Numbered from the stretch's first letter, positions 3,439 to 63,401 are shown. The stretch: DNA of 64,000 nt from a virus (IMGVR_UViG_3300012344_000013:62577-126576), one strand, 5' to 3'. Program-made: numbers and translations. The notes: a model not told the origin generated them from the sequence alone.

Positions 3439-3651
3439 GTTAATTTGATTAGAGTTGAGTATGATGGCGCAATTTATGACGTATTAAAGACACTATATGT
3501 TGAACATAACGGGAAGGCATTCGATGTTTTTGGCGTAAAATTCGTATTAGGTAATCCAGAAACAGGGCAGATAGTTTGTGCAAAAGTAGAGGATTGTAAA
3601 TATATAGTAGATAAGAAAAAGAAAAATCTTAATGAATAGAGGTAAATTGTT

Positions 3652-43065: not shown

Positions 43066-43197
43066 ATGGAAGAAATCTGGGAAATGCTTAATAATTTAGA
43101 AGAATCTGAAACTATAGAAGAAGGAATATCTACAGATGAGATTAAGGCAGCTTATGATAAATATGAGGAAACTATGGAGGCATTGAAAGATAAGTGA
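43066..43197 (+). CDS. 43-aa Doc-type antitoxin-like peptide (not in ORF track)
   Basis: RBS AAGGAGG; MEEIWEMLNNLEES...AYDKYEETMEALKDK; stop overlaps GTG of a Doc remnant. Confidence 0.55.
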   Translation: MEEIWEMLNNLEESETIEEGISTDEIKAAYDKYEETMEALKDK

Positions 43198-43374
43198 TAG
43201 TTTCTTATAAAGATTTGCTTAAAATAAATGAACATGTATGTACACGCAGTAAACAAAATTCTGATATGCGACCTAAATATAGATAGGACGGAGTTAGCAA
43301 AAATAGCTATTGAGGTAGTTAAAGGCAATATTAAAGATGTTGCTGTATTAAAGGAACTCATATATGAAGAGTAA
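43194..43374 (+). pseudogene. Doc/Fic toxin remnant with internal deletion and frameshift
   Basis: N-terminus MIVSYKDLLKINEHVC; C-terminus ELAKIAIEVVKGNIKDVAVLKELI in another frame; HPF.DGN.R motif absent. Confidence 0.45.
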
Positions 43375-46300
43375 AGTGATAAATGATAATACATGGGATA
43401 GATTTTTAGAAGAGTATACTCTTGCTGAAGGTATTCATATAAATAGTAGAGGTGCTTCTCTTTATACATCAGAAAACTCAAAACTAAACAACAAAAAAGA
43501 ACTAAAAGCAATTTGTACTAAATATAATAAATTATTAAAAGAGGTGAAACAAATGAACACTTATACTTGGATAGCAAAAGTTACTTGGTATTTTGATTCT
43601 GAAAAAAGAACAGATTATTCTCTGTGTTATGGTAATACAATAGAAGAAATAGGTGAACAAATAGACAAATACTATGGTAAAGACGTTGTTGAAGCAACTA
43701 TAACATATATAAAAGAAGGGTATTTCAATTTTGAAAACGAAGAACTTGCTAAACTTATTTTACAGGAGAAAGAGTAATGATTTGGAATGTATTTTATTTT
43801 GACGTTAACAAGAAAAAAATCATAGTAAGAAATTTGTTCGAGATGTCCATAACTTTTAATGGGGATTTTGAAAAGTTTAAGTATACACAACAAGGTAATA
43901 TCACAAGAGAGGACTTTGAGCGCCAGTTAAAGTTAATTCTTATATATACCTTTTGGTGTCGTAGAGATTACGAGATAGCAATGAGTGATTTATGTTGGAC
44001 TTATCCTGACGCTACCGATGGAGATAAACTTAGAGAATATGACCACTATGAAAAGACAGCGACTAAGGTTGATGTTTATTCGCAAGTAATGGCGAATTGG
44101 GATAGATTCGTAGATTATGTATGGAAAGAGGTAAAAGGGAATGAATAAGTTTGAAATGCTTAAAACTTTTGATGTAGACGACCTCGCTGATTTCCTTAAC
44201 TCGATAGAAAGCACAGAGGACGCACCTTGGAATAAGTGGTTTAACGCAGAATATTGTAATCCAGAGAAGTGTCCCTCAATTATCTGCAAGTGCATTGACA
44301 AAACTTGTGAGTGTGCCTATTGCGAACTGTATAAGAAAAAGAATGGCGAGGGTAAATGTCGTTTCTTCCCCGATAAGGATATTTTAGGTAGCGGCAATGA
44401 TGTAGTTAAGATTTGGTTGGAGAGCGATGTAGTTGACAATATTATGAAAATGTGATATAATACAATCATAATAAAGAAACGAGGTAATTGGAAATGAAAC
44501 CTTATGATTCAAAAGGATTTATAAAATTGGTTGCGACTTATCAGGCAATGGAAAAACAAAGACCGAAAAAGCCTATATTACATCACTTCTATGAGAATGG
44601 TGAAGATTACTCATATTATAGATGTCCAAATAATTGTTCGACTTATTGTCAAGTAGAACCGAGTCAGAAATATTGTCCACATTGCGGTCAGAAATTGTCT
44701 TGGGAGGAAGAATGAAAGCATATATAATTATAGAAAATTATAGTGACGCTTATGATGACACTTACCAAACAATTGTAAAAGCCATTTACAAAGATAAAGA
44801 CTTAGCCGCTCAAAGGTGTAGAGAATTAAACAATGAAATTAGAACAAAGCAAAAGCAAGCGAAAAAATGTGAAAACTGTCTTTATAGTAATTGGATAGAT
44901 GAAAGCGCAGAAGAGATATTAGCCGAAATGGATAAGAAGTGCTTTCAGGGTCATCATTATATGATAGATGACACTCCAAAATGTGATGATTTTGAAAGTC
45001 GAATTTGGGACTATCAAGAATATGAAGTAATAGAAAGAGAAATAGAAGAATGAAAGCATATGCAATTTATTCAATATCAAGTTGTTATGAAGATACGGAA
45101 ACTCAATTTGTTGAAGCCCATACCAATAGAGATATTGCTAAGAAGAGAAAAGAAGAACTTAAACTTGAAAAGAAACAAAGAATTGCCCAAAGCGTTTATT
45201 GCAGAGAATGTCCTTATGTAGAGAATTGGGGCAAGGATTTTATCAACGGCGGCAGTAAAGAGATTATTGACGCAATGAATCGCCGTTGTCCTAATTCTAT
45301 TGGACATCATTATGTAGACGCTAATGGCTATTTGCATTGCGTTGATTATCAAGGCTTTGAGGATATAGATAGTTTCTATATTGATGAGATTGAGGTGATT
45401 GAAGATGGCAACGGGAGTATGTAAAATTTGCGGGCATAGTTTTAGCAGTTCGGATGTAAATGAAACAGTTTGCCCGAGGTGTAGGTATGAAAAGAATTGG
45501 GATAGGCTTCTTACGGTTGATACTCCGTCCGTATCATCATTTGAGCAACCAACAGAACTAACGATTAACACGCAAAAGATAGTATTAGAGAACGGCGGCA
45601 TTCAGTTGGTTGTAGATAATGATACGATTAAGGCTGTAAATAGTATCGAAGTAAATGGAATTAAATTTGAAAGGGTAAAAGAATGAAAGTGAGAGATATT
45701 TTGCCCCTAATCAAGGGTTATTGCATTTAGCTATTTAGTAGAGAAAATATAATAATTAAATAAGGTAGGTAAATAATATTATGGGAATTGTAAGTTTTTG
45801 TTTGGCAATTGTGGGACTGTTTTTCAATCCTCTTTGTCTTTTTGCGATTCTTGCGCTCGGTTTTGGTATGGGAGAGTTGTGGGACCAGTATGAGAAAGGT
45901 ACGGGCGACAAAGTAACAAAAGGTTTAGGTATAGCTGGAATTACTTTTAGCGCAATAGAGATTATTTGGTTCATAATATGTTTGGGAAGGTAATAAGGTA
46001 AATTAAAATGAAAATCTGTCCTAACTGCGGAGCGTCTAATCCTGACAATAGAATTAGATGCGAGTATTGTAAATCTTATATCGGTGAAGAAGAAATAGGC
46101 GTTGACACAACGATTGACGATATAAAAAATGCTATTAGCGATAAAGAGGAAAGAGCAAAAGAGATAGCGAATAAATTAGATGAAGTCTTTAAGGCTATCG
46201 CCATGGCTGATGAAGATTCTGTACTTTTAAACGAATTGTGAAAATACAGGGATAAACTTCAATCAGAATATTTATCACTAACTGGTCATTTATATTTTTA

Positions 46301-48690
46301 CGGATGTCCTGATACTGAGCCTTCTACGAAGCAAAAAGTGATTACAATTATTCTTGTTTGGGTATTTTTGATTGGTATAACTGTATTAGCAATATTATCT
46401 AATACTGTTACGAGAGGCAGTTTCAGATGATAAAGAATCCTAAAATCGGTGATATAGCCTATGCCATAGATAAATGGCGTGACTTAAAAGCAATTTATGC
46501 TATCAGTATTGATGATATTATAGATGACAAAATAATTGACTATAACTATGAAGTAGAATATAATGTTAAAGATTGTTATGATAATCTTGAAGAAGCCATA
46601 GAAAAACTTTTGAAATATCAATTGGAGATTATTATCGTATAAAAGTAGTTGACAAACAACTACTTTTGTTATATAATATAATAGAAATCAGGGTAAAAGT
46701 TAGTTTATGATATAATATTTGTGAAAATATTGGAGGATAAAATGAAAGCAAAATATTTAGGCAAAAGCAGACATAAATATGACGACGCCGTTGATTTATT
46801 TTATGAATATCGTGGTAAAGAGTATATGATAACTGACGAACACAACGGTTATTCTGAAACGATGGGAGAAAAACATCGTCAAGCACAAGAAGAAATTGAT
46901 AAAGAATTAGATGGGAAAGAAACTATATCTAATTCAGAGCCTTTTGATTTCAGTATATTATATAATTATTGGGAGGATTAAATATGGAGAATAATACACA
47001 AAAACTTATAGAACTTATAAAAGAAAATCCCGATTTACCTATTATACCTATGGTCTACTATGAAGTTGTCGGAGAGGATTATGGTAATTGGGTAGGTAGA
47101 TTCAGTACTTGTTATGTTGATGAATATACTTTTTTTCAGGATAAGTATTATGACAATAGAGAAGACTTCAAAGAAGATTACTATTATTATTACGATGAGT
47201 TTATAAACAATAAATTTGGCTATAAACCCGCATTAGAATTGCCGAATAAGCCCGAAGGTATAACACAAGAGCAATTAGACGCAAATAAAATAGCAGAAAA
47301 GAACGTGGACAAATATCTTGAAGAAATTGCAGAAGGATTTTTTAAGAAAGCAATTATTGTTTATATCGATTCGTTACAATGAAAGATTTTTATAAATATT
47401 GCAAGGAGATAAAGAAATGATTTGCACAAACTGTCTACATTATATGGTATGTCCTCATAGCAGTGATGGGATTATTAGTGGTTGTCCATTTTTCAAGGCC
47501 AGAAGACAAATTGAAGATGAAGCAGTAAAAGAATTTGTAGATTATCTTAAATCAACACAAGTAAGTAAAATGGATTATATGGGTAGTGATTATATTGCCA
47601 TTGAAGATATTGAATTAGCGATGAAAGAGTTTGAAGAGATGTTATAATGATATACGACGCAAATATAGCAACAGATAGTGCAGAAATCAAAGGATACGGA
47701 CTTCAATTGAAAAAGTTTGAAAAAGTTATTTATCAAAAAACAAAACAAGAGATTATAGACCTCGCTGATGTGATTCTTATTACTTTCGGTAAGCCAAGTT
47801 TATTAGTGCAATTAAATGAAATGCAAGCCGAAGCTTCTGTTTGCGATAATAAGGGTTTTGAAAATAAATATGAAATACGTCCTTATTTTATAAATTTAAT
47901 TTTAGATAAATATAATATGAAAGTAGTAGGATGGTAAAATGACTAATTTTGAACGTATAAAAGCAATGTCTGTCGAAGATATTGCAACAATCATATACGA
48001 CGGAATTTCAAGTGACCCCTGTGATTATTGCGAGTTTAATACAGGAAATTGTAATGGTGTACCTTGTCATGAATTGTCCAATACCGAGATAATAATGAAA
48101 TGGCTTGAATTTGGGGGAGAAGAATGAAAAACGGTATTTTTACTATCAGATTTGAAGATGGCTTCGAATGGGTGTATAAAAATAAAAATCCTTGGCATTC
48201 TGAGGCTGATGTTTTAGAATATGTCCTACTATATAACAATAAGGTAGGAGTTGCTTCTTTATCTATTAATAAAAAACTTAACAAAGCTATTCTCATTATA
48301 AATGAAGATACTGGTCTAGAAATTCCTAAAAAAGAATTTGTATATAATTATAAAGAAAACTCCTTTGATTTACTTAAACTTCTAAAGTCTACATATACTA
48401 AATATAAAGAATATATAAGTGAAACTACTAAATGGAGATATTTGTTTGAACACGAATTGTCAGGTGATGGCACTTCTGAGAGTGAAAGGTATACCTGTGT
48501 ATTAGGCCAAAAAGGAATGACTTATCCGTATTGGAATAGAACTTGTCATGAAGACCTTCCTGAATATAGAGGAGATATACTAGAATCTATATACACCGAT
48601 ATTATTACGGGAGATGTTAGTAAACTATCTGAGGAACAAAAAATTGAGTTTGCAAATGGAGGGGAAAATTACACAAATGCACCTATCTGA
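43364..48690 (+). CDS. Array of about 20 small hypothetical early-type genes, several Cys/Zn-ribbon containing
   Basis: Tightly packed ORFs with RBSs and internal consensus promoters at 44433-44461 and 46649-46677. Confidence 0.6.
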
Positions 48691-49063
48691 AATGGCAATG
48701 GAGCGTTCTGATGCCATTGGTAAATGTATGGAATTAGGAAATGAATTTATTGAGCATTTTATTAAAGTGGCAGATGGGGGTCCTTATGGGAGAGATTTTG
48801 AACATCACTGCAAAGAAATGCAAACTTGGTGAAATCTCGTTAAAAATATACAGCTGAAATATAATAAAAAACTTATTTCTAACTCTCAACTAATGGATTG
48901 GTTCTTTAGCAAGGGTTCCAGTATAGAATATGTTATTCCTGTTGAATATCAAGATGCTTATGAGGAATTTTGTATAAATTTATTGAAAGATAAAAATAAA
49001 TCTATTGTAGATGCGATAAAAGAATTAGAAATAGAATGTAAGGAAAAATATAAAAATAAATGA
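48677..49063 (+). pseudogene. DUF29/HEPN-like helical protein interrupted by in-frame TGA at 48830
   Basis: MHLSE|MAMERS...FIEHFIK...HHCKEMQTW*NLVKNIQLK...LMDWFF; frame stays open 76 more codons. Confidence 0.6.
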
Positions 49064-49378
49064 ACTTAATTAAATTACTGATTACTTGCTTAATAATATG
49101 TTTAGCAAGTAGAATTTATATGAATTATTTAGAATATTATACTCAAGATTTAGAGATAAACGAAATACCTATTAGAACATGCTTAGTGTATAAGATAATA
49201 ACTTCATTATTTGAGTATTCTTTTATAGGTATTGCATTATTTACTTTAATTTTAGTATGGAAATATATTTAACCTAACTTAACAAGAAATCCGTCTACTT
49301 TAGTTAACGGATGAATTGTTTATACCTATGAGAAAAACTATAATAAAAATATTGTATATAATAACACAATAAAGAATA

Positions 49379-49804
49379 ATGGAGCGTATTATGTACAAAT
49401 TAGACAAATCTACAAACGCGGTTTTTTCTCTACATTATCATTTCATAACAGTAGTAAAATATAGAAGAAAAGTATTTGTAAACGACGATATCATCGAATG
49501 CTTAAAAAATGTTGTTGAACAAGTAGCTTCTGAGAATGATGTTACAATTATAGAACAAGAATGTGGTTATGTTCATGTACACATATTGTTCAAATGTAAA
49601 CCCACGTTGAATTTCAAAACATTTATTCAAGCTCTCAAGGGACGTAGTGCTAGAGTCTTACGAGCCCAATATCCTGATTTACTGAAAGATAAGTTGTGGG
49701 GAGAGCATCTTTGGAGTCCTTCATATTTCTTAGCTACAACAGGTAATGTAACTATTGACACACTAAAAGCTTACATTGAAAATCAGCGAGTTGAACAAGA
49801 ATGA
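49379..49804 (+). CDS. tnpA: IS200/IS605 Y1 transposase
   Basis: LHYHFITVVKYRR, HVH (HUH), LKGRSAR, LWSPSYF, YIENQ. Confidence 0.95.
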   Translation: MERIMYKLDKSTNAVFSLHYHFITVVKYRRKVFVNDDIIECLKNVVEQVASENDVTIIEQECGYVHVHILFKCKPTLNFKTFIQALKGRSARVLRAQYPDLLKDKLWGEHLWSPSYFLATTGNVTIDTLKAYIENQRVEQE

Positions 49805-50889
49805 ATAAAGCATATAAGTTTCGTATTTACCCGAATAGCGAGCAAAGATTGTTGTTTGAAAAGACCTTCGGCTGTGTCAGATTCATTTACAACAAAATGC
49901 TTGCTGATAAGATTGAGTTTTACAAAGAAACCAAACAAAAACTTAATAACACTCCTGCGCAATATAAGAAAGAGTTTGGATGGCTTAAAGAAGTTGACTC
50001 TCTTGCATCAGCAAATGCGCAGATGAATTTACAAAGTGCTTATAATAACTTCTTTAGAGTTCCAAAAGTAGGATTTCCAAAATTCAAAAGTAAGAAAAAC
50101 AATAAGAATACCTACACCACTAATAATCAAAAAGGTACAATATCTTTGCTAGGCACTAAACTTAAACTTCCTAAAGTAGGATATGTCACAATAAAGCAAC
50201 ATAGACAGATACCCAATGATTATAAGATTAAATCTGCAACTATTAGCAAAACAGCATCAGGAAAATATTATGTGTCTATTCTTACTGAATATTCGTATGA
50301 TGTTCCTCAAAGAATACTTAACAAGGATAAGGCTTTAGGATTGGATTATGCTAGTCATAGTTTCTATGTCGATAGCCAAGGCAGAGAAGCAGATTATCCT
50401 AAGTTCTATCGAAATACTCAAGAAAAACTCTCCAAAGAACAACGTAAATTAGCAAATATGAAATATGGTAGTAAGAACTATCAAAAACAGAAGATTAAAA
50501 TTGCTATGATACACGAACATATTGCTAATCAACGTAAAGATTGGTTACATAAGTTGAGCCATATATTAGCTACAGAATATGATTATATTTGTATTGAAGG
50601 CTTAAATATGAGGAATATAAGTCAATCATTACGTCTTGGTAAATCAACTTTAGACAACGGGTTCGGAATGTTTAGAACATTTCTCTAATACAAGCTAGAA
50701 GAACAAGGTAAAAAGCTTATTAAGATTGACAAATGGTTTCCTTCAAGCAAAATGTGTCGATTTTGTGGAACAATAAACTCAACTCTAACTTTAGCCGACC
50801 GTGTCTGGACTTGTGATTGTGGTAAAACTCTGAATAGGGATGAGAATGCCGCTATAAATATTCTAAATGTTGGACTAAGTATGGTCTAA
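49801..50889 (+). pseudogene. tnpB: TnpB with premature TAA at 50686
   Basis: AYKFRIYP, GLDYA, IEGL; after the stop the frame continues YKLEEQGK..PSSKMCRFCG..WTCDCG..RDENAAINI. Confidence 0.9.
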
Positions 50890-51002
50890 TTCCAAATACA
50901 CTGAACGGCAGGAATTGCCGGGATAGCTCGTTGATACTTGGCGCTTTAGCGCCATTGAGCGAGAAGCTAGTACCTTTAGGTAACTAGTAGTTCACTAAGT
51001 AT

Positions 51003-51052
51003 AAGAAGTCAATTAGAATTTAGTTGACTTCTTTTTTATTTTATAGTACAAT
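51003..51052 (+). promoter_or_regulatory. Terminator hairpin fused to sigma-A promoter
   Basis: AAGAAGTCAATTA/TAGTTGACTTCTT plus T-run; TTGACT(51024)-17-TACAAT. Confidence 0.75.
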
Positions 51053-51329
51053 ATACTTGTAAATAAAAATGATAGGAGAATAGTAAAATGAAGATTTATC
51101 GAGAAATGTTTTTGAAAGAGTTCAAGTTTTGGGGCGAAGCAGAGAATTTTACTAGATATATCACAGATGATGAGTTCGATTTAATAGAAGATGTACTTAA
51201 TGAGCCTGATAGTGGAGACAAATATTTTGATAAAACATGGGTAAATGATTTGTTTACATTTGATAGAGATTTTATTGCAAATATTTTAGGGTATAATGAT
51301 GAGGAAGAAATGATAGAGGATAGGGATAA

Positions 51330-52181: not shown

Positions 52182-52226
52182 AGAGTCAACAACTTAGTTG
52201 ACTCTTTTCTTATATTAAGTTATAAT
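52182..52226 (+). promoter_or_regulatory. Terminator hairpin fused to sigma-A promoter
   Basis: AGAGTCAAC/GTTGACTCT; TTGACT(52198)-17-TATAAT(52221). Confidence 0.8.
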
Positions 52227-52627: not shown

Positions 52628-52780
52628 ATGGAAAACGATAAAATAACAGAAAAAGATTTACAAGAAGAATTGGATAATATCAGTTATCTCGAAGGTCTGG
52701 GCTTGACTCCTGAAACTATAAATGCAATAGAAGACCCTATTACTTATATTCTTAATGATTGGAGCGAATTGGGACTTTGA
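52628..52780 (+). CDS. 50-aa DinJ/RelB-like antitoxin peptide lacking RHH domain (not in ORF track)
   Basis: MENDKITEKDLQEE...LTPETINAIED...DWSELGL; P.ET..A..E motif; overlaps the YafQ start. Confidence 0.6.
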   Translation: MENDKITEKDLQEELDNISYLEGLGLTPETINAIEDPITYILNDWSELGL

Positions 52781-53091
52781 AGTGAATAGAATATAAAAAT
52801 AATTTTAAGAAAGATTTAATAAAAGTTGAGCAATATCCCTCTTTCAACAAAGATATACTTAAAGAATATATAAAATTGCTTGTTAATAATGAGCAACTAC
52901 CTAAAAGTGCTCATAATCATCCTTTGAGTAAATCTTCTCCTAAGAAATATAAAGGTCTGTGGGATTTCCACATTGCGCCTGATATTTGTGTCTTATATGA
53001 AAATAACAATGATAGTATTGTTTTAACTAGAATAGGTAAGCACAATAATCTAGGTTTAACTGAAGATTTGACAAAAATAAACTTTTTATAA
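52777..53091 (+). pseudogene. YafQ-like toxin with TGA at codon 3
   Basis: TTG AAG TGA ATA GAA TAT: MK*IEYKNNFKKDL...LP...HNHPL...WDFHIAPD..LY...LTRIGKH. Confidence 0.75.
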
Positions 53092-53092
53092 G

Positions 53093-53560: not shown

Positions 53561-53571
53561 GGAGAATAAAT

Positions 53572-54360
53572 ATGTATAAGCATCATTTATATGAAGGCAT
53601 AAGTATTGATAAAAATAACAATATTATATTCAACTGGAATAAAGATAATAAAAGTAGCGACGTTATCTATTTAGATATCCATACAAGTGGGGAATTTAAC
53701 GATGACGGTATAAAATATATTTACGGATACAAGTATACTCCAAACGCAACGCAGACTCAAAAGAAATTAGTAAGAGACTTTATAAAAGCAGGTAATACGT
53801 CTCGTGATATAGAACATTTTATAGAAAATGCAATATTAGAGATAGAGCACGTTAAGCCACTAAATAACTTTGGTGCCTTAGTAAGAATTAAACCTTTTAA
53901 ATACCCCTCTATATTAAGTCAAATCGAAAATGCTTTAACTTCTTATGCAGAAGTTCCTTATTATAGATTTGAACTAATAAAACAAACTTACAATAAAGTA
54001 ACTTTTAATAGAGAGAAAGCATATCAACTTTTAATAAATAAAGGCTTAGATGAAATAGCTGCTGAAGATAAAATAAACTTTGTAGAAAATAAATTTGAAC
54101 AATTCAAAGCAAGCGGTGAACTTTTTCAAATGAAGAGATTCCTCCCAATCTCTATTCGAGGTGCATTTAGCGATTTCTTAATATTTGAAAATGAACATCA
54201 AAGAAAACTTTATGAAAGTTTACAGAACGTAGATGTTCTCATTTATGACGATTTTTTAACAAGTGAAAGCACGATAAAAGAAATAATTAGGTATTTGAAA
54301 TCGTTCAATCCTAATAATACCCTAACAGTTTTTGTTCTAATAAATCAACAGAGGGATTAA
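53572..54360 (+). CDS. Phosphoribosyltransferase-fold protein (paralog 1)
   Basis: VLIYDDFLTSESTIKE PRPP-binding loop with G to E change. Confidence 0.7.
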   Translation: MYKHHLYEGISIDKNNNIIFNWNKDNKSSDVIYLDIHTSGEFNDDGIKYIYGYKYTPNATQTQKKLVRDFIKAGNTSRDIEHFIENAILEIEHVKPLNNFGALVRIKPFKYPSILSQIENALTSYAEVPYYRFELIKQTYNKVTFNREKAYQLLINKGLDEIAAEDKINFVENKFEQFKASGELFQMKRFLPISIRGAFSDFLIFENEHQRKLYESLQNVDVLIYDDFLTSESTIKEIIRYLKSFNPNNTLTVFVLINQQRD

Positions 54361-54362
54361 CT

Positions 54363-55151
54363 ATGTATATTTTAGAAGGTATAAAAAGAACAAATGATGG
54401 ATATTCGTTTGATTTTAGTAGAGATGAATTTAATGATATTATAAATACAGTAGGATTAAAAATAAACATTTCTTCTTTTTCAGATAATGTTTATTATTTT
54501 GGATATGAATTTACTAAAAATACTAATTCTACTGAACGAGCTAATTTTATAAAATGGCTAAAAAAGTTAAAGGTTTCTGATGTTAATAATGATGTAGCAT
54601 CTTTTATAGATAGGCCACTGATTCAATTAAACAAAGAAATAAATCTAAATAATATAAATGCTTTTATATATCCCATGTCAAGTCAAAACGATTTATTGAA
54701 AATAATAAAACGAGAAGCAGGAAGATGCTTACCCCACTCAGTGAATAAATATTCAATTAATTTGATGAAGAATTTACCAAGAGAAATACAATTCGATTGG
54801 GATTTATTTGAACAGGAGCATGGAGATAGTGAGATATCAACATATAGAAATATGAAAAAGTATATTCAAAATGAGTTACTGCCCTCCATTCAAAAATCAG
54901 AGTATTTCTCTATTGGAAGAGATGTGAAACCTAAATACAGACAATTTTTTATGAATTATTTAAGATTTGAAGATAAGAAGCAAGAAGAGTTACTAAAGCA
55001 AATTCAAAAAGGTACCATTTTAGTAATAGATGATATAAACACTAGCGGCAGTACCTTAAATGAAATTCTGAGAATAGTACGTAGCATAAACCCCGATTGT
55101 ACTATATACATTTTTACGCTAATAGGCAAATCTTCGATGGATTTTAGTTGA
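54363..55151 (+). CDS. Phosphoribosyltransferase-fold protein (paralog 2)
   Basis: IYPMSS, ILVIDDINTSGSTLNE, IFTL. Confidence 0.8.
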   Translation: MYILEGIKRTNDGYSFDFSRDEFNDIINTVGLKINISSFSDNVYYFGYEFTKNTNSTERANFIKWLKKLKVSDVNNDVASFIDRPLIQLNKEINLNNINAFIYPMSSQNDLLKIIKREAGRCLPHSVNKYSINLMKNLPREIQFDWDLFEQEHGDSEISTYRNMKKYIQNELLPSIQKSEYFSIGRDVKPKYRQFFMNYLRFEDKKQEELLKQIQKGTILVIDDINTSGSTLNEILRIVRSINPDCTIYIFTLIGKSSMDFS

Positions 55152-55794
55152 TTTATTCCTATAACTGTAGTATAATATACTTGTAAATAGAAGAAACGAG
55201 GTTGTTAGAAATGAAAACAGCGAGAAAAATCTTTAAGGTAGTAGCAATTATATTAGGTGTTTTATTTGTACTTGGTGCAATTTTAATGGCAGGATACGCT
55301 GATGGCGGTAATGCAGGTTGGGAAGAATTTGAATTATTCGGAATTCTTATAGAAGCTATATTAGCTAGCGCAACAATGCTCTGTTATTTTATATACAATA
55401 TGCTTAAATAATTATACAAGAGAGGTGAATATTTATACAATGAGAGTAGAAATTTTTAAGGAAGAAGAGTTCGAGAGTATACAAGGATGCAAACCTATAG
55501 AGCAAGAAACAGCTTGTATGAAAGTTAGAAATGAAGATAAGTGGCTTATTAGTACTACTGATAACACAATGATATCTAAACTTAAACGTAAATTTATAGA
55601 AAGTAAAGGACTTTGGAAAGCTTATAAAGAAATAACTATTAATAAGCAAACTAAAAAAGAAGAAATAACTACTTACTTCTTTGAAGTACCAAAAAATGCA
55701 GTTACATTTAGAACAGGAATTAAACGCGAAACGCATTTCACTGATGAACAACGTAAAGCAATTGGTGAACGATTTAGGAAAAAGTGATTTTATT

Positions 55795-55832
55795 AAAAAC
55801 TCTGTGTAGAAATTATACAGAGTTTTATTTTT
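55795..55832 (+). terminator. Intrinsic terminator
   Basis: AAAACTCTGT/ACAGAGTTTT followed by T-run. Confidence 0.65.
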
Positions 55833-55862
55833 GAAACAAGCAAACAAGAAGCAATAAAAGAA

Positions 55863-55931
55863 CGAGTTCTAAGCCATTTTAACACGCAGCCTATATAGAA
55901 CATCATCTGAATGCATAAAATGGATTCTAGA
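55863..55931. repeat. Hairpin repeat with TATATAGAACATCATCT core (copy 2)
   Basis: CCATTTTA/TAAAATGG arms; core matches 30458-30474 at 16 of 17 positions. Confidence 0.65.
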
Positions 55932-56399
55932 CCAGTATTTGCACGAGTCTACAATAAAAGAAAGGTAAAGATTGCTAAGGATAACACAAAGAAGATAAAT
56001 TTTACTTCAAAAGTTGATTTTTAATGAAAATTGCGATAAAATATTATAAATTAGAAAAGAGGAATTACTAAAATGTGGGTAAACTTTATAACTGGAAATT
56101 CAGAAAATTTCAATGAAAATCTAAAATCTATAAAATCAATAGTAGCATTAGATAGGTATGTTGAAAAATTACCTAAAAAGAATTCTAAAAATATTTATTG
56201 CTATAAATTAAAACAAAATGGAGAAATAGATTTTAAGGGACTAAAAATTATTATAGAAAATCATACACCTGAAGTTATCTTACTCGGAGATAGCTTCTAC
56301 GATAAAAATATAGATTTTTCTAAATTACGCAAATATTTTATAGAAATTCTTATTAAATTGGATAATTATTATCCTAAAATTTTAATTTATAGGCATTGA

Positions 56400-56760
56400 A
56401 TTCCTTACGCGCACCCGTACGTACGCGTTATATAATAATATTTATATAAATATTTATATAATAATATTATAAATATATAATTATATAAATTATAATATAG
56501 ATATATAAATAATAATTAGTGTATTCTTAATATATTAAGAATACACCATATTAAAAATATATAATAAAATAATTATTATAAATATATATAATAAATTTAT
56601 ATAAAAGGCAGCAGCAGGAGAGAATTTAGCAATATACCGTAACACTTTAGTAAGAAAAAAAATAAATATAACTAAATCTATATGGTGTTAACAAACTATT
56701 TCTAAAATTTTATAGAATATATTTAACATAAACTATATTAATTGATTTTATAGATTTAAT
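56400..56760. other. Extremely AT-rich non-coding region with palindromes; putative replication origin
   Basis: ACGCG..GTACGTAC GCGT block, near-pure AT runs, palindrome GTGTATTCTTAATATATTAAGAATACAC. Confidence 0.45.
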
Positions 56761-56779
56761 TGATAGCTAAATTCAATGA

Positions 56780-57382
56780 TTGTATAATAATTATATTAAA
56801 ATAAAAAGGAATGATATTATGTATAATTACAATTTAGAAATACCAGTATCAATGGAAAGTAAAGCAACAGTATCAGGAAAAGAAATGCCACTAGAATCTG
56901 ATGATGTTATAGAAGATGCTTTTAGAAAACTGGCAAATGAAGTTAAGGGTAATTTAGATAAAAATGCTAATTTTATAACAGATGCTTTTGAATTAGATGT
57001 TTTTGAAGTATCTTATTCAGGAGATTTTGACGAAGATGAGGGAACTCTTTATCTTGATGTAGTAATAGATAAACCTATTGCAGAAGAAGAATTAGAGAAT
57101 TTCTTAGATAAATACTGTAAAGCAAATATAACTCATGTAGAAGCTTTAGACGAAGAAGTTATAACAGATGAGGATGATTCTATAGATGCTACTGTTGTTT
57201 ATAGAGTATCATTAAAAACATTTCCTAATTTAATTATAGTTAATGCAGAAGATGAACTTGTAGAAGAAGACCTTAGTGATTTTGATAAACGTTGGGATGC
57301 TGAGTTTGGTAAATATGCAGATAAGCCTATGCCAACAGAGGAAGCTCTTGCGGTTCTTAGGAGAATGATAGAATTCAAATGA
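56780..57382 (+). CDS. Acidic protein with C-terminal antitoxin-like peptide
   Basis: Ends LVEE|DLSDFDKRWDAEFGKYADKPMPTEEALAVLRRM; overlaps the YafQ gene (ATGA). Confidence 0.55.
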   Translation: MYNNYIKIKRNDIMYNYNLEIPVSMESKATVSGKEMPLESDDVIEDAFRKLANEVKGNLDKNANFITDAFELDVFEVSYSGDFDEDEGTLYLDVVIDKPIAEEELENFLDKYCKANITHVEALDEEVITDEDDSIDATVVYRVSLKTFPNLIIVNAEDELVEEDLSDFDKRWDAEFGKYADKPMPTEEALAVLRRMIEFK

Positions 57383-57744
57383 AGAATTTAGAATACAAAA
57401 AGAAAGCCTTACGAAAAATAAAGGTATTGAGAAGAAAACATTGTAATATAATTCTTAAAAAGTTAGAATCTGCATTGGAATTTATACAACAAGATACTTT
57501 AGATAAGCGTAAAAGTAATCACCCTTTACATGGAAATCATAGAGAACATAAAGAGTTACACATAAACGGAGATACACTACTTATTTACGAAATAGATTAT
57601 AGTACTAATACTACATATGTTTGTGATATTATAAACCATAAAGAGCTTAACGAATCTAATCTTATAGAAATAATAACTCCTAAAAGTCATCCTAATGGCG
57701 GGATAATAATTTCAAAAGAAGATTGGGAAGATTGGGATTGGTAG
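57379..57744 (+). CDS. YafQ/RelE-family toxin domain plus W/D-rich tail
   Basis: SNHPLHG...ELHINGDTLLIY...NHKEL, then NES..PNGGIIISKEDWEDWDW. Confidence 0.8.
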   Translation: MKNLEYKKKALRKIKVLRRKHCNIILKKLESALEFIQQDTLDKRKSNHPLHGNHREHKELHINGDTLLIYEIDYSTNTTYVCDIINHKELNESNLIEIITPKSHPNGGIIISKEDWEDWDW

Positions 57745-57749
57745 ATTAT

Positions 57750-58244
57750 ATGGAAAAGAAAAAATTATATATAAATAAAAATGCTGGAAATATAGAGGCT
57801 AATATTCAAGCTTTTAATAAGTCAACTTTTACAGGAGGTCTTATGGAAGCAGGTTCTGAAAAGCGCTATTTCTATTATTGGAGCCCTATATATCTCCATT
57901 CAACAGGAGAACTTTGGTCAGAAGATGAACAAGCTAGAACAAAGGCGGTTTCAAGAGAAAAAGCAATTTGCAATATCAAACATAAATTTTTTAGGCAATA
58001 TGGAAGAGCGTTTAATCTAAAAGATGAGTACTTACACGAAGAGCCTATAACGGATTATACGGAATTAGAGAATTCAGAAGAAGACCATGTAGAAGACCCC
58101 AAATATAATTTTGATGATATTGATAGGGAAGACGATTATATGGTAGAATCGAGTAATAAATTAGCTGCAAATGTGGAGGTAACAATAGATAAAGAAGGCC
58201 GTATTTTTATACCGAAAGATTTATGGGATGAGTGGGATTATTAG
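57750..58244 (+). CDS. Acidic multi-segment protein ending in AbrB-like W/D tail
   Basis: TIDKEGRIFIPKDLWDEWDY immediately upstream of the PemK gene. Confidence 0.6.
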   Translation: MEKKKLYINKNAGNIEANIQAFNKSTFTGGLMEAGSEKRYFYYWSPIYLHSTGELWSEDEQARTKAVSREKAICNIKHKFFRQYGRAFNLKDEYLHEEPITDYTELENSEEDHVEDPKYNFDDIDREDDYMVESSNKLAANVEVTIDKEGRIFIPKDLWDEWDY

Positions 58245-58679
58245 ATGAGCAAGTATGATATTTACTGGGCATATGTTTATTTTCAAGATACATATAATGG
58301 AAAAAGACGCCCTGTTATTCAATTAGATAATAACACTTTTGTACCGCTAATAGCACCTATAACTTCCCATGCAGCAAGGGACAGACTAGATTATTCAATT
58401 AAAGATTGGAGAGAGGCAGGCTTAACAAAACCTTCTATAATTCGTTTGTCTAAGAGAATAAAATTAAATAGGACTTTATTAGATTCTTATATTGGAAATT
58501 TATCCATAGAAGATTCAGAAGCACTAGATAAGTTGATAGAATCTATAATAAGCAATGAGAGGCTGGTAGAATCAAGTACAAACTATCACAATTGGAGAAT
58601 TAAACCTACTTTCTCAAATAAATATGATGGTAAAGGACATCTAATAGTACCAAAGGGGATTTATAGTGACTGGGATTAA
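58245..58679 (+). CDS. PemK/MazF-like toxin domain plus W/D tail
   Basis: YDIYWAYVYFQD...KRRPV...PITS...DWREAGLTKPSIIR...IGNLS..D, then DGKGHLIVPKGIYSDWD. Confidence 0.85.
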   Translation: MSKYDIYWAYVYFQDTYNGKRRPVIQLDNNTFVPLIAPITSHAARDRLDYSIKDWREAGLTKPSIIRLSKRIKLNRTLLDSYIGNLSIEDSEALDKLIESIISNERLVESSTNYHNWRIKPTFSNKYDGKGHLIVPKGIYSDWD

Positions 58680-60168
58680 AGAAAAAGAAATAAGTATGCC
58701 TTTAAGTGAGTTTGTAGATAATTCTTTAATTTATATTGTAGATGATGTGACAAAAGTAACCGCAAAAGATGTGGTAGAGGATTTTAGATTAGACCTTTGG
58801 GATGAGGGTATAGAAGAAGAGTATGTTCCAACGGGCGTTAAAGAGCGAATTACAGTTTCTAAATCCGATGTTAAAAAAACTATAAGAAATCTAAATACGC
58901 AAGCTTATATGATTCCCAGATACTATAAAACTGTTGATTTTATGAAAGAAAGAAGCTTAGATGAAAAGGAAATTCATGAGGCTGTTAAGAAGCTTTCTGT
59001 AGAAGATTATACATATAGTATATATTCTAAACATCCTGCTCATTTAGGAGATATTTTAGATGTATTTGTAGTTAAGAATAAAAATTTTGGTAATTCCAAA
59101 TTGGACAACTTAATCATATACATAAAAGTAGATGCATTTGAAAAACAAAAAGTTACTATAATATCATTTCACGAAGCAGAAAGAGATGGAAGTGATTTGA
59201 AGCCTTATAAAGAATCTATGGAAACTATTAAAACATTAAGTGATTTTATTGATAACTCAATAGTTGTGTTTACCAATGATATAGATTCTGTAGATGTAAA
59301 AGATATTGTAAATGGGTTTAAGAATGACTCTTGGGATGAAGATATTAAAGAAGATATCGAAACTCCTTCTGTGAAAAATTATAAAATTACTTTATCCAAA
59401 TCAGACGTAGAAAAAGCATTAAGTGATTTACAATATAAAGGTATTGTGTATGTAGATAGAGATAAGAATTCTTCTTTTAAGAATGAAAGAGGTCTTACAA
59501 GAAAAGAAATAATAGAAGCTATTAAAAAGTTAAGCACAGAAGATTATTCTTACAGTTTAGAATCTTCACATTTTTTATATCCTGGTCACATACTAAATGT
59601 ATTTGTAACTAAAAATGATTTAGGTAATGAGAAACTATCTAATTTGATTTTATATATAAAAATTGATACATATGAAAATGAATATGTAACAATAATATCT
59701 TTTCATGAAGCGGAGCGTGACGAAAGTAGTATGAATCCTTATAAAGAATCTATTTTTGAAACATTAAATGAAGATTTAGATGAACAAATAAAAGTTATTT
59801 TCAAGTGTAGTTTATACCAAGGTAATTCCTTAAAACCTGCTAATCTTGAGAATATAGATTTAGATATGGCTTTAAGAAGCGTGATAGCTAAAGACCTTAG
59901 AAACTTTATAGATAAATTCAATGCAGCAAATAATCTTAATTTAGACAATGAAGCTGAATGGACAAGATATGGAATTGATATAGATGATACTAATTTGGAC
60001 AACACTAAGTTAGCAAAAGTAAATCTTTTTGATAATGAAAACAATATAGAGAAAGCAGAAGAGCTATTAAAGAAATCGGGAGATTTTTCTAATAGTATGA
60101 TTTTACTTGATGATGAGGATGGGTATCATACGTTTACTATTACATATAAGATAGTAGATACTGAATAA
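58666..60168 (+). CDS. Polyprotein with two tandem [acidic peptide + MqsR-like toxin domain] units and a C-terminal domain
   Basis: KLS.EDY...L.VF...IYIK....IISFHEAE...PYKES occurs twice. Confidence 0.75.
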   Translation: MTGIKEKEISMPLSEFVDNSLIYIVDDVTKVTAKDVVEDFRLDLWDEGIEEEYVPTGVKERITVSKSDVKKTIRNLNTQAYMIPRYYKTVDFMKERSLDEKEIHEAVKKLSVEDYTYSIYSKHPAHLGDILDVFVVKNKNFGNSKLDNLIIYIKVDAFEKQKVTIISFHEAERDGSDLKPYKESMETIKTLSDFIDNSIVVFTNDIDSVDVKDIVNGFKNDSWDEDIKEDIETPSVKNYKITLSKSDVEKALSDLQYKGIVYVDRDKNSSFKNERGLTRKEIIEAIKKLSTEDYSYSLESSHFLYPGHILNVFVTKNDLGNEKLSNLILYIKIDTYENEYVTIISFHEAERDESSMNPYKESIFETLNEDLDEQIKVIFKCSLYQGNSLKPANLENIDLDMALRSVIAKDLRNFIDKFNAANNLNLDNEAEWTRYGIDIDDTNLDNTKLAKVNLFDNENNIEKAEELLKKSGDFSNSMILLDDEDGYHTFTITYKIVDTE

Positions 60169-60264
60169 GTTGTTGACAAAAATTTAATCTGGGCTTATAA
60201 TTAACATAAATAAAGGCTAAATTAAACGTATTAAAAAAAAAATACATTAAAGGAGTTTTTAACC

Positions 60265-61476
60265 ATGAAGATAAACATACAAGAATCTCTTAAAGAAAGA
60301 GATGCTGTAACTGGAAATAGATATAATCTGTACAGCAATTACTGTTCGCACACTTATACAGTAGAACAAAAGAAAAATATAGCAGAAGCTATTTACAAAG
60401 GAGCTACTGATAGAGAGCTACTTGAAATGGTAGATGATGCTGAAGTAGAATATAGAGAAGTTCAAGAATATGCTAGAGATAATTCCAATAGAAGATTTAG
60501 AGATGAAGATGGAAATATTTTTTCTATCTGGGATTTACTAAACGATTTTATTGATTGGGAATTAGATGATAAAGTAGAAGAAGAGCCTGATAAATCAGTA
60601 AAAGAATTATTTATTGATTATATTAGAAATTCCACAGATAAGAATGGAACTTTAGAAGAGATTAGAGAGAACTTAGAAGAAGCTTCTTATGGAGGAGCTT
60701 ATGACATAGATGACGACCAATATTTTACTAAAGAAGATTTAATGGAGTTTGCAGAAGAAGTAATGTATGTTTTACATACTAATGCAAAAGGACCTTTAGC
60801 TACTCCTGATTATACTGATTTGTATGTAGATGGAAATCAGATATTTATTACAGTAATAGATGAAGACGGAAATGAGTTTACTGATAAAATATCGGTTGAT
60901 TTTAGAAGAGTAAAGAGACTTTCAGATTTAATTTCTAAATATACCTTACCTCTTGCTGAGAGGATTATGGCCCAGGCAGATGATTTTTATAGGGATATAA
61001 ATGAGGGCTGTGGTAAAAAGAAGAAAAAGCTGATAAAAGAAGATGTAGATAGAGATTACGATTTCTATCTTAATCTAATAGATATCGATGTAAGGGACAT
61101 GCTTAAAGAATATCACGAAGCAGGAAATAGAACTCCTTCAGATATTTTGGTAGAGCAAGGTTACACTGATACTGATTCAGAAATCATGTATAGAGAAGTA
61201 AAAGATGGTGACCATACTTATAGACTAGTAATTGATTTTGAGCCAGTATGGGAAGATAATACAATTCATTATTACGTATTAAAAGATGGAAGGATTCCTT
61301 CTGGATATACTTATACTAAAACGGCTTTTGATGAAGAAGAATTGGAAGAAGATTTAGATGAAGTAATCCCCTATTACTATAAACCTGACGGAACGCTAGT
61401 AGCTGGATATAATCCAAAAACAGGGGCCTCTGTTGTACCTCACGATTGGTGCGAAGATTGGGATGAATGGGAATAG
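60265..61476 (+). CDS. Acidic polyprotein with multiple L-x-E sites and W/D tail
   Basis: IQE|S, LEE|A, INE|G, IKE|D, LDE|V; ends YNPKTGASVVPHDWCEDWDEWE. Confidence 0.6.
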   Translation: MKINIQESLKERDAVTGNRYNLYSNYCSHTYTVEQKKNIAEAIYKGATDRELLEMVDDAEVEYREVQEYARDNSNRRFRDEDGNIFSIWDLLNDFIDWELDDKVEEEPDKSVKELFIDYIRNSTDKNGTLEEIRENLEEASYGGAYDIDDDQYFTKEDLMEFAEEVMYVLHTNAKGPLATPDYTDLYVDGNQIFITVIDEDGNEFTDKISVDFRRVKRLSDLISKYTLPLAERIMAQADDFYRDINEGCGKKKKKLIKEDVDRDYDFYLNLIDIDVRDMLKEYHEAGNRTPSDILVEQGYTDTDSEIMYREVKDGDHTYRLVIDFEPVWEDNTIHYYVLKDGRIPSGYTYTKTAFDEEELEEDLDEVIPYYYKPDGTLVAGYNPKTGASVVPHDWCEDWDEWE

Positions 61477-61479
61477 TGC

Positions 61480-61623
61480 ATGGCTAAGAAGTATGATTTA
61501 TATGCGCATTTTGTAGAATATGATGATGTATCAGATGGAAAATACAGGCCAAAGTAGCAGGGTATGACCCTAAAAGCGGTGCAACACTTATTCTAAAAGA
61601 ATTGTATGATGAGTGGGATTAAC
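61480..61623 (+). pseudogene. PemK-plus-tail gene with internal deletion
   Basis: MAKKYDLYAHFVEYDDVSDGKYRP joined out of frame to VAGYDPKSGATLILKELYDEWD. Confidence 0.7.
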
Positions 61624-61647
61624 AACAAATATTAAAGGAGAATTAGA

Positions 61648-62424
61648 ATGGATAAAACAGATAAGCTTTGGGAACTTATGCGAGATGTAGATTCCTTAGA
61701 AGATATTTATGAAACAGAAGAGGGTTATATTGCTTTTGTTTTTGATTCTGAAGGGAATACAGATGAGAGAGTAGAGCAGATAATGAAGGGTTTAGATAAA
61801 GAAGGGTATATGAATTCTTTTGAAGAAACCAACGGCTCTAATGTAATTATATTCGATATTGATTTTGAAGATGAGTTAGAAGAAGCAGTAGTTAAATTTG
61901 AACCTAAATATATTCCAAGAGATTGGAAAGATGTTTATAATTTATTTGAAATCTTAGCTAATGAAGAAGATATTAGATATTTATGCAATAAACATAAAGG
62001 TGAAAAAGCTTGGGATACTGCTTGCGAGAAGTGGTTTGAAGATGATGAATTAGAGGAAGAGCTGCTAAATTTTAATGGGGGCACTTCCATTGAGTTTTTT
62101 GAATATAATGGTAAGTGCCCTATTGAGGAGTTTATAGATGACGTTTCTGACAAAAAGCTAAGAGCTAAAATATTTACAGATATGTGTAGACTTAGTGAGC
62201 TAGGCAGTAGAGCGAGAGAGCCCTTATCTTCTTACCAAGGTGACGGTATATTTGAGATGAGGACCAAACAAGGAAGCAATGTAACAAGGGCTTTTTACTT
62301 CTTTGCTATCGGTGATAAGATAGTGATGACTAATGGTTACGTAAAAAAATCTCAAAAGCGCGACGAAGCTCAATTCAAAAAAGCTAAAAAATATCGTGAT
62401 ATTTACAATTTAGATATGAGGTGA
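61648..62424 (+). CDS. Acidic polyprotein ending in RelE/HigB (Gp49-like) toxin domain
   Basis: IEFFE..GKCPIEEF...LRAKI...REPLS....GIFEMR....R.FYFF...IVMTNGYVKKSQK...AK. Confidence 0.85.
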   Translation: MDKTDKLWELMRDVDSLEDIYETEEGYIAFVFDSEGNTDERVEQIMKGLDKEGYMNSFEETNGSNVIIFDIDFEDELEEAVVKFEPKYIPRDWKDVYNLFEILANEEDIRYLCNKHKGEKAWDTACEKWFEDDELEEELLNFNGGTSIEFFEYNGKCPIEEFIDDVSDKKLRAKIFTDMCRLSELGSRAREPLSSYQGDGIFEMRTKQGSNVTRAFYFFAIGDKIVMTNGYVKKSQKRDEAQFKKAKKYRDIYNLDMR

Positions 62425-63401
62425 TTCGGATGACTTTTGAAAATTTATTAAATAAATATCTCCAAGACCCTGAGTTCAAAGAAGAGTGGGAAAAGTTACA
62501 AGATGACAAGGAAAGGGATAGCGTAGAATCAGAGGAAGCTTCTGAAGATTCTGTTGAATTAGAAGAAGACTTTGAAAATCCTGAGGGAAAAGAAATTCCT
62601 TCTGCACCCACTGAGGATAATGCTGGTATAGCTAATCTTATAAATGCTTTAATAAAAGATGAGTGGGATGCTATTGATGGCTATCAATCGGCTATTATGA
62701 ATATAAAAAGCTTTTCAAACGATACAGATTCTATTAAAGTATTAGAAGAAATAGCTAATGATGAGTATGCACATGTAGGCAATTTACAAAAAATACTTAA
62801 TCGATTTGCTCCCCAGGCTTCTACAATTGCAGATGGCGAAGAAGAAGCAGAAGAAACTATTGCAATGAATGAATCTCTATCTAAAAAGAAGCCTTTATTA
62901 GAGTGGGTGGAGATACCCATTGCTAGAGGTGGCGCGTATTCTTCATCTAGATTTTTGAATAAGATGTATAGAAGTAGCCGAGAAAACACAATTGCTCTAT
63001 CCGAGGGTGTTTCTTTTGAACCAGAAGCAAATAAAAAAGGTGGTATAATTACCTTTTCTACAGTAGTCAATGCTTTAGAGTTAGATAAAAATAAGCTTAT
63101 AAACTTTATTAAACAAAAAGTGGTCACAATAAATAACAAGCTTAAAGCTAATAAAAAAGTAGATGATATTGCACAAAATTACGATTTAGCTGGCTGGACA
63201 GTAGGACATTATCTAAACGGCAGATATACAGCAGCTAACGGCGCTGTGTTTGATGAAAAATCTTTAAGTGTCGAGATAATAGGTATAGATTCGAATACGC
63301 TTCTGCAAATAGCAGAAGATTTATGCGCTGCGTTTACACAAGAGAGCGTTCTAGTTAAAGATTATAATACAAACAAGATATTCTTTGCAGATGTTCTTTG
63401 A
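62421..63401 (+). CDS. Polyprotein: HigA-like N-terminal helix (no HTH), ferritin-like domain, C-terminal domain
   Basis: MTFENLLNKYLQDPEFKEEWEKL; DEWDAI..Y...IANDEYAHVG.L. Confidence 0.65.
   Translation: MIRMTFENLLNKYLQDPEFKEEWEKLQDDKERDSVESEEASEDSVELEEDFENPEGKEIPSAPTEDNAGIANLINALIKDEWDAIDGYQSAIMNIKSFSNDTDSIKVLEEIANDEYAHVGNLQKILNRFAPQASTIADGEEEAEETIAMNESLSKKKPLLEWVEIPIARGGAYSSSRFLNKMYRSSRENTIALSEGVSFEPEANKKGGIITFSTVVNALELDKNKLINFIKQKVVTINNKLKANKKVDDIAQNYDLAGWTVGHYLNGRYTAANGAVFDEKSLSVEIIGIDSNTLLQIAEDLCAAFTQESVLVKDYNTNKIFFADVL

Follow-up and report, generated by a model that had tools for sequence, protein, structure and literature searches.

What does a phage do with a run of toxin genes whose putative antitoxins are mostly the ends of other phage proteins? 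This question is raised by a virus record in IMG/VR (IMGVR_UViG_3300012344_000013; 126,576 bp), of which we analyzed the second half, bases 62577-126576 (64,000 nucleotides, hereafter called the window). Its accessory arm carries five toxin genes, namely YafQ-1, YafQ-2, PemK, a tandem MqsR-like gene and Gp49/HigB (Pfam, NCBIfam; Table 1). An earlier note on this DNA had described the region as a set of captured type II toxin-antitoxin (TA) pairs, with the antitoxins trimmed to neutralizing peptides and the toxins repeatedly inactivated. Its view that several toxin families are involved was confirmed by profile matches to four families, one of which, represented by two tandem MqsR-like domains in 58666-60168, it had missed. 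We think it probable, with some reserve, that these genes form minimal, promoter-less TA pairs, which are gained and lost by recombination and leave orphan antidote segments behind.

According to this proposal, the arm would hold minimal type II TA pairs, their toxins belonging to three or four families of mRNA interferases. Each unit would consist only of a toxin domain and a short partner segment, without a DNA-binding domain. Because a unit would sit in frame inside a phage open reading frame (ORF), the partner would form one end of an unrelated carrier, whose other end would pass to the toxin. The partner would form the C-terminal end of the carrier in the case of YafQ-2 and PemK, and the N-terminal start in the Gp49/HigA order. 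Transcription together with the carriers from host-type early promoters, combined with translational coupling, would make an autoregulating antitoxin unnecessary. Recombination between short direct repeats would add and remove units. Where a toxin is lost, an orphan partner would stay behind, nested events would place partner segments on other toxins, and in the resulting chains one protein would bear the partner of the next toxin. Orphan antidotes are expected in any case, since an antidote cannot be lost ahead of its toxin.

Toxin-plus-partner units in a variable block

We compared the window with related phages recovered from metagenome contigs, four of which (L002, L014, L015 and L016) share its backbone of a dCMP deaminase, two phosphoribosyltransferase (PRTase)-like genes, a 108-amino acid (aa) gene, a variable block and an S-adenosylmethionine (SAM) lyase. 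Further comparison loci were the fragment L020 and, for YafQ-1, L028 and L029; L006-L013 carry the same PemK and add no variation, since they are 99.9-100% identical to the window. The variable block differs among the relatives through discrete in-frame indels. Three of these correspond to toxin-plus-partner units, and all six of their junctions (6/6) are in frame.

The YafQ-2 unit consists of a 40-aa segment, a stop codon and YafQ-2, and is located between the body of an acidic protein, carrier X, and an acidic C-terminal tail. In L014, L015 and L016, X continues straight into the tail without a YafQ-2 unit, and L002 has a shortened form; the comparison with these relatives identifies the tail of YafQ-2 (tail 1) as the former end of X. 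In L014, a similar 30-aa segment is found at the end of PemK145, followed by a 56-aa ORF without YafQ, and here the toxin is gone and the segment kept. The assignment of YafQ at 57379, which the earlier note had paired with a peptide tail at 56780, is supported by PF15738 (44.3 bits against a cutoff of 30, E 2.2e-11, residues 4-91).

The second unit is a cassette of tail 2, a stop codon and the PemK domain, flanked by 14-nucleotide (nt) direct repeats. L014 has a single copy of the repeat and no cassette, and its 168-aa protein joins the body of the window's 164-aa protein directly to the end of the window's PemK. The PemK domain matches PF02452 over residues 4-101 (34.4 bits, cutoff 23.1) and was predicted by AlphaFold with a predicted local distance difference test (pLDDT) score above 93. 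Structure comparison, as the earlier note had proposed, returned a MazF fold: Foldseek aligned the model with MazF-mt3, Staphylococcus aureus MazF and Bacillus subtilis MazF (TM score 0.73-0.79 by target, probability 1.0). In a clade of 496 homologues, K20, R22, P23 and T40 are near-invariant, and R22 and T40, each conserved to at least 90% among 100 homologues, may correspond to the catalytic pair of MazF. A further PemK, fused in front of the 164-aa body in L015 and L016, is missing at this position in the window, L002 and L014. These fusions lie at 5019-5729 in L015 and 803-1513 in L016, with another in P0004, and the start of the 164-aa body contains a conserved Asn/Gly-rich motif.

In the third unit the order is reversed, with a Gp49/HigB toxin followed by a stop codon, a HigA-like start and an acidic linker. 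The Gp49 domain is well supported (PF05973, 59.6 bits against 23.9, E 3.1e-16). The cassette splits one phage ORF, which in L014 and L015 is an unsplit 296-aa ORF with a single copy of the repeat. In L002 and L020, an LPD11 domain is found at the Gp49 site and the HigA-like start is still present on the downstream gene. In GenBank, the three nearest Gp49 toxins (44-50% identical) each precede a helix-turn-helix (HTH) antitoxin that is similar over its first 20-25 residues to the start of 62421; one such pair aligns over 21 aa with a BLASTP E value of 2e-7. It is because of this resemblance to the N-termini of cognate antitoxins that we regard the HigA-like start as antitoxin-derived. No HTH domain follows it in 62421 (Pfam), in agreement with the earlier claim that only an N-terminal segment of HigA accompanies the toxin at 61648.

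Two further toxin genes are YafQ-1 and the MqsR-like gene. The earlier note had reported a nonsense codon at position 3 of YafQ-1. The stop is real, and the next canonical start lies 30 codons into the gene. From codon 4 onward (52786-53091), the frame nevertheless matches the full RelE_StbE profile (E 1.4e-13) and TIGR02385 (51.1 bits against a cutoff of 27.9), and the truncated ORF matches PF15738 (51.3 bits against 30), which bears out its identity as YafQ. The stop may not inactivate the toxin: between the window and L014, both of which bear a stop, we counted 23 synonymous and 16 non-synonymous changes, a ratio of non-synonymous to synonymous substitution rates (dN/dS) of 0.12. The first 30 codons, upstream of any canonical start, gave 7 synonymous and 6 non-synonymous changes in the same comparison (dN/dS 0.10), and values among four phages range from 0.08 to 0.18. 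The start region reads TTG AAG TGA ATA in the window, TTG AAA TAA ATA in L014 and TTG AAG AGG ATA in L028; L028 and L029 carry an intact, 104-codon YafQ-1. The stops may be recent, independent hits on one codon in two phages, or YafQ-1 may still be used, for example by weak initiation at the ATA beside the stop. The mini-frame (TTG, Lys, stop) in front of this ATA, at 52777-52790 in the window and 3168-3181 in L014, may also point to non-canonical initiation or dosage control. A 50-aa ORF accompanies YafQ-1 in the window, L014, L028 and L029 (dN/dS 0.02-0.07; 0.03-0.07 in the phages bearing the stop). Both YafQ partners, this ORF and the end of carrier X, are candidate antitoxins on the grounds of position, start/stop overlap and co-conservation.

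The MqsR-like protein matches PF15723 in its second unit only (28.6 bits against 26.2, E 1.9e-6) and contains an internal repeat (58938-59243 and 59475-59771). The unit is duplicated in the window and in L014 (500 aa in both) and single in L002 (1643-2611) and L015 (5743-6708; 321-322 aa). The two copies are ~69% identical at the DNA level, and the duplication is thus old. In L016 the gene is a pseudogene with one stop and one frameshift.

Stop and start codons overlap or abut at 52777, 57379, 58245 and 62421. As the earlier note had stated, the partners have no DNA-binding body: no ribbon-helix-helix (RHH), HTH or complete AbrB domain was found in any of them (Pfam, NCBIfam), and the autoregulation that characterizes type II TA systems is hence not apparent. 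Its picture of free short peptides applies to the 50-aa ORF; the other segments are mostly terminal extensions of phage proteins of 164-403 aa. A Doc/Phd pair that it had placed at 43066..43374 on the + strand is not supported, since the ORFs at 43066 and 43228 gave no Pfam, NCBIfam or PDB match at E<=10, and the HxFx(D/E)GNxR motif expected in a Doc remnant, here supposed to carry a deletion, is absent in all three frames.

An acidic, tryptophan-rich tail upstream of PemK

The window contains five acidic, Trp-rich C-terminal tails, and the rest of the 126-kb genome has no further one. They follow a common pattern of a Gly, a short hydrophobic strand, usually Pro-Lys, and Trp or Tyr among acidic residues, followed by the stop codon. 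The earlier note had already recognized such tails beside the PemK genes at 58245 and 61480, and had reported a PemK deletion. Both observations hold: 61480 retains 25 codons of PemK joined out of frame to tail 5, a relic without a start codon, and the closest intact counterpart is P0009 in L020.

We surveyed the ORFs preceding PemK genes in the window and in L002, L014, L015, L016, L005, L019, L020, L021 and L022. A scripted search picked up 11 PemK genes, of which 10 have an upstream tail; a further three that escaped its pattern, in L005, L021 and the third position of L022, were read by eye. In total, 12 of the 14 PemK genes, at nine loci (all those named except L021), directly follow an ORF that ends in the tail. 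In L021, the upstream ORF of a 13th gene has a tail-like motif that is internal, ~12 residues before the end. As a background, a tail-like end is found in 21 of 187 ORFs of at least 40 aa, and most of these are the tails themselves. The proteins that carry the tail vary widely and include X, the 164-aa protein, a 400-aa protein, another PemK and a stand-alone ORF; stand-alone tail ORFs of 48 or 49 aa occur in the distant phages L019 and L005. L022 has a chain of PemK-tail, PemK-tail and PemK. These three tandem genes span 1266-3768, the first two encoding 410 and 174 aa and each ending in the tail that precedes the next. The position just upstream of PemK is the decisive evidence for regarding the tail as a PemK partner, and the tail is thus probably the antidote motif of this phage PemK clade. 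In our reading, tails found on other toxins would stem from nested insertion, and orphan tails from deletion of the toxin.

The tails evolve under constraint (dN/dS 0.08-0.12), including those not followed by a PemK; tail 4 of the 403-aa protein, for which PemK is deleted in the window, has a dN/dS of 0.08 against L020. Tail 2 gave sub-threshold matches to the AbrB family TIGR01439 (16.7 bits against 28.3) and to MraZ (18.7 against 23) over profile positions 2-23 only, and the other four tails matched neither, so that the tails as a group could not be assigned to the swapped-hairpin class. An AlphaFold model of tail 2 read through its TAG stop into PemK shows the tail as a hairpin and a short helix (pLDDT ~75); its output lists no contacts and does not bear on binding. 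With its own tail, PemK was modeled without confident docking (tail pLDDT 49-64). A complex prediction of two PemK domains with the C-terminal 45 aa of the 164-aa protein, run without controls, scored 0.31 against a mark of 0.32 and was not used either way.

Many members of the PemK clade are longer proteins, up to 912 aa, in which PemK is the N-terminal module. A 2646-aa "PemK" match (P0007) was discarded as a repetitive surface protein. The orthologue of the 403-aa protein in L002 (2700-6896) contains a leucine-rich-repeat insert of ~1000 aa (1398 aa in total) and has a different C-terminus without a tail.

Selection on toxins and partners, and competing explanations

Are the toxins, then, maintained by the phage, or are they on their way out? 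Nearly every element that we compared has a dN/dS of 0.06-0.24 at a dS of 0.2-0.9. The PemK domain (0.06 against L002) and PemK152 (0.15) fall into the range of the neighboring genes (0.05-0.24). These values, together with the in-frame state of every junction, make it very improbable that the region is functionless, horizontally acquired DNA in decay, with its patterns being scars of illegitimate recombination, despite the PemK deletion in the window, the broken MqsR and 400-aa genes of L016, a nearby IS200/IS605 element and a gene content that is highly variable between relatives. Toxins have nevertheless been lost repeatedly, as a comparison of intact and broken alleles in related phages, suggested by the earlier note, revealed: PemK-2 in the window, YafQ-2 in L014, Gp49 in L002 and L020, and MqsR in L016 are missing or broken, and loss of a toxin that leaves its partner segment recurs. 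Since the 400-aa gene is also broken in L016, decay in that phage is not toxin-specific.

The earlier note had inferred that the phage keeps the antidotes as an anti-defense library against several families of host toxins, with three of the partner toxins being broken. In this form, in which the antidotes would serve mainly as a shield against host TA defense and the toxins would be captured baggage on the way out, we consider the idea rather unlikely. Orphan segments do persist and some are constrained, such as tail 4 and the 50-aa ORF beside the interrupted YafQ-1; the genes appear to be early, behind host-type promoter-like sites and beside SAM-lyase anti-restriction genes; and there are precedents in AimX and YosL, which act on MazF (PMC10769878), and in orphan DarG-like antitoxins of T4-like phages (PMC11825919). 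However, PemK and YafQ-1 are as constrained as their housekeeping neighbors, and purifying selection on toxins fits poorly with disposable baggage. The intact PemK in the window could itself be served by the orphan tails, and the order in which toxin and antidote must be lost explains orphans on its own. Toxin conservation, the near-neutral drift of the orphan HigA-like start in L002 (2 synonymous and 12 non-synonymous changes, dN/dS ~1.0) and the lack of an identified host toxin as target together weaken the shield as main function.

A different role for the tail, as a portable docking or assembly element (half of an AbrB-type swapped hairpin, through which tails pair with one another) or as a signal directing cargo to the capsid for injection, with the toxins as delivered effectors like those proposed for polyvalent proteins, would account for tails on five unrelated proteins and for their conservation also where no PemK follows. 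The sub-threshold AbrB and MraZ matches, the hairpin and short helix in the AlphaFold model, the various fusions and splits of modules among relatives and the replacement of Gp49 by the polyvalent-protein domain LPD11 in L002 and L020 (PMC5512222) are in line with it. Yet the tight stop/start adjacency to PemK, including that of the two stand-alone 48-49-aa ORFs, in which nothing but the tail is conserved, is the signature of an antitoxin gene, the region contains no MuF, portal-associated or protease domain, and nothing in our data links these proteins to virions; a docking element is thus a quite improbable explanation. A bolder extension of the TA reading, which we likewise judge unlikely, would have the arm work as an interlocked chain, in which the end of each early protein neutralizes the next toxin and surplus tails blunt MazF-type defenses of the host. 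Its links would run from X to YafQ-2, from the tails of YafQ-2 and the 164-aa protein to PemK, and in L022 from PemK-tail to PemK-tail to PemK. Several RNases could then form one relay that is released in order during infection, and in-frame insertion of cassettes at short repeats would be a general route by which phages domesticate TA systems without regulators.

We thus favor minimal TA pairs embedded in frame in carrier ORFs, and several observations weigh against this proposal. Binding and neutralization by the segments are, for every pair, what we infer from sequence. The first of the three PemK genes in L022 lacks an upstream tail, roughly half of all tails stay conserved with no PemK behind them, and the hairpin of MazE that the tail matches belongs to the DNA-binding half of that protein, not to its known toxin-binding end. 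The DinJ likeness that the earlier note had seen in the partner of YafQ-1 did not hold up: neither the 50-aa ORF nor the end of carrier X has DinJ or RelB similarity (Pfam and NCBIfam at E<=10; BLASTP against phage DinJ). For the MqsR-like domains we saw no partner and found no MqsA-like gene, and by eye they appear to differ from Escherichia coli MqsR at several catalytic positions. Finally, the relatives are few and partly non-independent, and the empty sites could have arisen by deletion instead of being ancestral, so that they do not give the direction of change. The phage might use the pairs to shut off host mRNA or to compete with other phages, and cross-protection from related toxins of the host may come as a by-product.

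Setting of the locus and comparison with known systems

The genome has 99 bp repeated at both ends of the record, as expected for a circular assembly. The left part of the window encodes T4-like replication genes (PolA, a UvsX-like recombinase, a clamp loader, SbcCD-like nucleases, a beta-glucosyltransferase and NrdD). Long ORFs are almost all on the + strand, and the accessory arm runs from small early-type genes through the toxin region and the SAM-lyase genes to dockerin and fiber genes. Promoter-like sites immediately precede gene blocks (Table 1), a further one with an 11/12 consensus match being located at 52198. No near relatives were found among GenBank phages by megablast, and single-protein searches of IMG/VR returned no close ones; tblastn with the 164-aa protein (phages) and with YafQ-2 (plasmids), a word-indexed search with YafQ-2 and the ESM Atlas (164-aa protein, carrier X) gave no relatives or no usable match.

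Table 1. Positions of toxin genes, partner segments, cassettes and promoter-like sites, counted from the first base of the window
Positions	Strand	Feature	Details
52628..52780	+	50-aa ORF	Antitoxin position of YafQ-1; no DNA-binding domain
52777..53091	+	YafQ-1	TTG start overlaps upstream stop; TGA at codon 3 (52783-52785); 101-codon frame from ATA at 52786
56760-56788	+	Sigma-70-type promoter-like site, 11/12	Upstream of carrier X; consensus match only
56819..57382	+	Carrier X, 187 aa, acidic	Putative YafQ-2 partner segment in last 40 aa (57260-57382)
57379..57744	+	YafQ-2, 121 aa	4-nt start/stop overlap with X; tail 1 at its end (~57694-57744)
57750..58244	+	164-aa carrier ending in tail 2	Stop directly abuts PemK ATG, same frame
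58156..58578	+	Cassette of tail 2, stop and PemK domain, 423 nt	Between 14-nt direct repeats 58142-58155 and 58565-58578
58245..58679	+	PemK/MazF toxin, 144 aa	Domain 1-105, linker, tail 3
58666..60168	+	500-aa MqsR-like protein	Two tandem units (acidic leader and MqsR-like domain) and 150-aa C-terminal part
60173-60201	+	Sigma-70 promoter-like site, perfect 12/12	Upstream of 60265
60265..61476	+	403-aa carrier ending in tail 4 (orphan in window)	Orthologues in L014, L015 and L020 precede intact PemK
61480..61622	+	PemK remnant and relic tail 5	25 codons (61480-61557), out-of-frame junction to 61551-61622
61648..62424	+	N-domain and middle region fused to Gp49/HigB domain	Gp49 at 62149-62391, residues 168-248
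62060..62568	+	Cassette of Gp49, stop, HigA-like start and acidic linker, 509 nt	Between 13-nt direct repeats 62047-62059 and 62556-62568
62421..63401	+	HigA-like segment (62430-62507), acidic linker, ferritin-like domain, SAM-lyase-like end	

Matches to the SAM-lyase family were found in 62421-63401 (E 0.0011, behind the ferritin-like/DUF2383 domain) and in 63430-64000 (E 5.5e-10); these neighbors are likely anti-restriction paralogues. Palindromes are extremely avoided in the 126,576-bp genome (GATC 2 against ~302 expected, TTTAAA 7 against 152, ATTAAT 9 against 121, and CTAG low as well), which fits an escape from restriction enzymes. Avoidance of RNase motifs on the coding strand yielded no strand-specific candidate, only this palindrome avoidance and a stop-codon-related bias. 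An IS200/IS605 element at 49379-50889 encodes TnpA (a Y1 transposase of 141 aa) overlapping TnpB, which falls into two parts, an ORF of 295 aa and, in a different frame, a zinc-finger piece of 45 aa; the sister phage L014 lacks the element at the corresponding place. Directly 3' of the dCMP deaminase, 53572-55151 encodes two paralogous 262-aa proteins with a weak phosphoribosyltransferase motif at the C-terminus, both of which are present in L014, one in L028 and none in the L029 interval.

Phage TA genes, antitoxin mimics, minimal neutralizing peptides and shuffled polyvalent proteins are all known already. In the literature that we searched, we found no description of several TA families embedded in frame in carrier ORFs, of the tail as a PemK partner motif, of toxin-to-toxin chains or of recurrent toxin loss between sister phages. 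If the segments neutralize their toxins, the locus would provide three natural definitions of a minimal antidote, for three toxin families. The tail would then be a previously undescribed short PemK partner motif shared by several uncultured phage lineages, and TA modules could persist in lytic phages without autoregulation, as in-frame inserts that split or extend genes. The locus is also a testable case for asking whether phages use such toxins for host shut-off, and orphan antidotes against TA-based defense, and YafQ-1, selected despite its stop at codon 3, poses a puzzle concerning translation start or dosage control.

We compared this arrangement to known systems. The canonical mazEF/pemIK, dinJ-yafQ, higBA and mqsRA operons share with it the toxin families, the adjacency and the start/stop overlaps; in the window, the antitoxins have no DNA-binding domain, the units have no promoter of their own and their parts lie in frame in unrelated phage ORFs. 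T4 Dmd is an antitoxin mimic in a lytic phage, without a toxin. The orphan DarG-like antitoxins of T4-like phages (PMC11825919) are likewise toxin-less antitoxins used for counter-defense in lytic phages. Both are single whole-domain proteins directed against one system, whereas the segments in the window mostly adjoin a phage toxin.

Polyvalent proteins, known from phages and conjugative elements (Iyer et al. 2017, PMC5512222), resemble the window in being shuffled, multi-domain early conflict proteins, and LPD11 occupies the Gp49 site in relatives. RNase domains of the BECR/RelE fold occur among them (PMC5512222), but paired antidote segments are not a feature of the class, and its main text mentions neither MazF, PemK nor HigB (PMC5512222). 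The window proteins are also small (120-500 aa), with no MuF or peptidase domain seen in them, unlike polyvalent proteins. A parallel for the Gp49 unit is HigB2-HigA2 of Vibrio cholerae, in which an N-terminal HigA2 peptide, residues 3-22, is sufficient to neutralize HigB2 (PMC5416850). The toxin-first order and an N-terminal segment of ~20 residues are shared, with neutralization predicted from sequence in the window; HigA2 keeps its HTH domain and autoregulates, whereas the window replaces the HTH domain by an acidic linker and a ferritin-like/SAM-lyase-like protein. The tails, in turn, can be compared with AimX of phi3T and YosL of SPbeta, two Bacillus phages, which share only the toxin-binding region of MazE and bind and inactivate MazF (PMC10769878). 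The tail would likewise be a phage-borne antitoxin piece without a DNA-binding role. AimX and YosL, however, are stand-alone mimics of a helix from an RHH-type MazE and have no phage toxin next to them, whereas the window has an acidic, Trp-rich strand-helix tail, which is borne by varied carriers and located directly upstream of a phage PemK, with units of other toxin families alongside.

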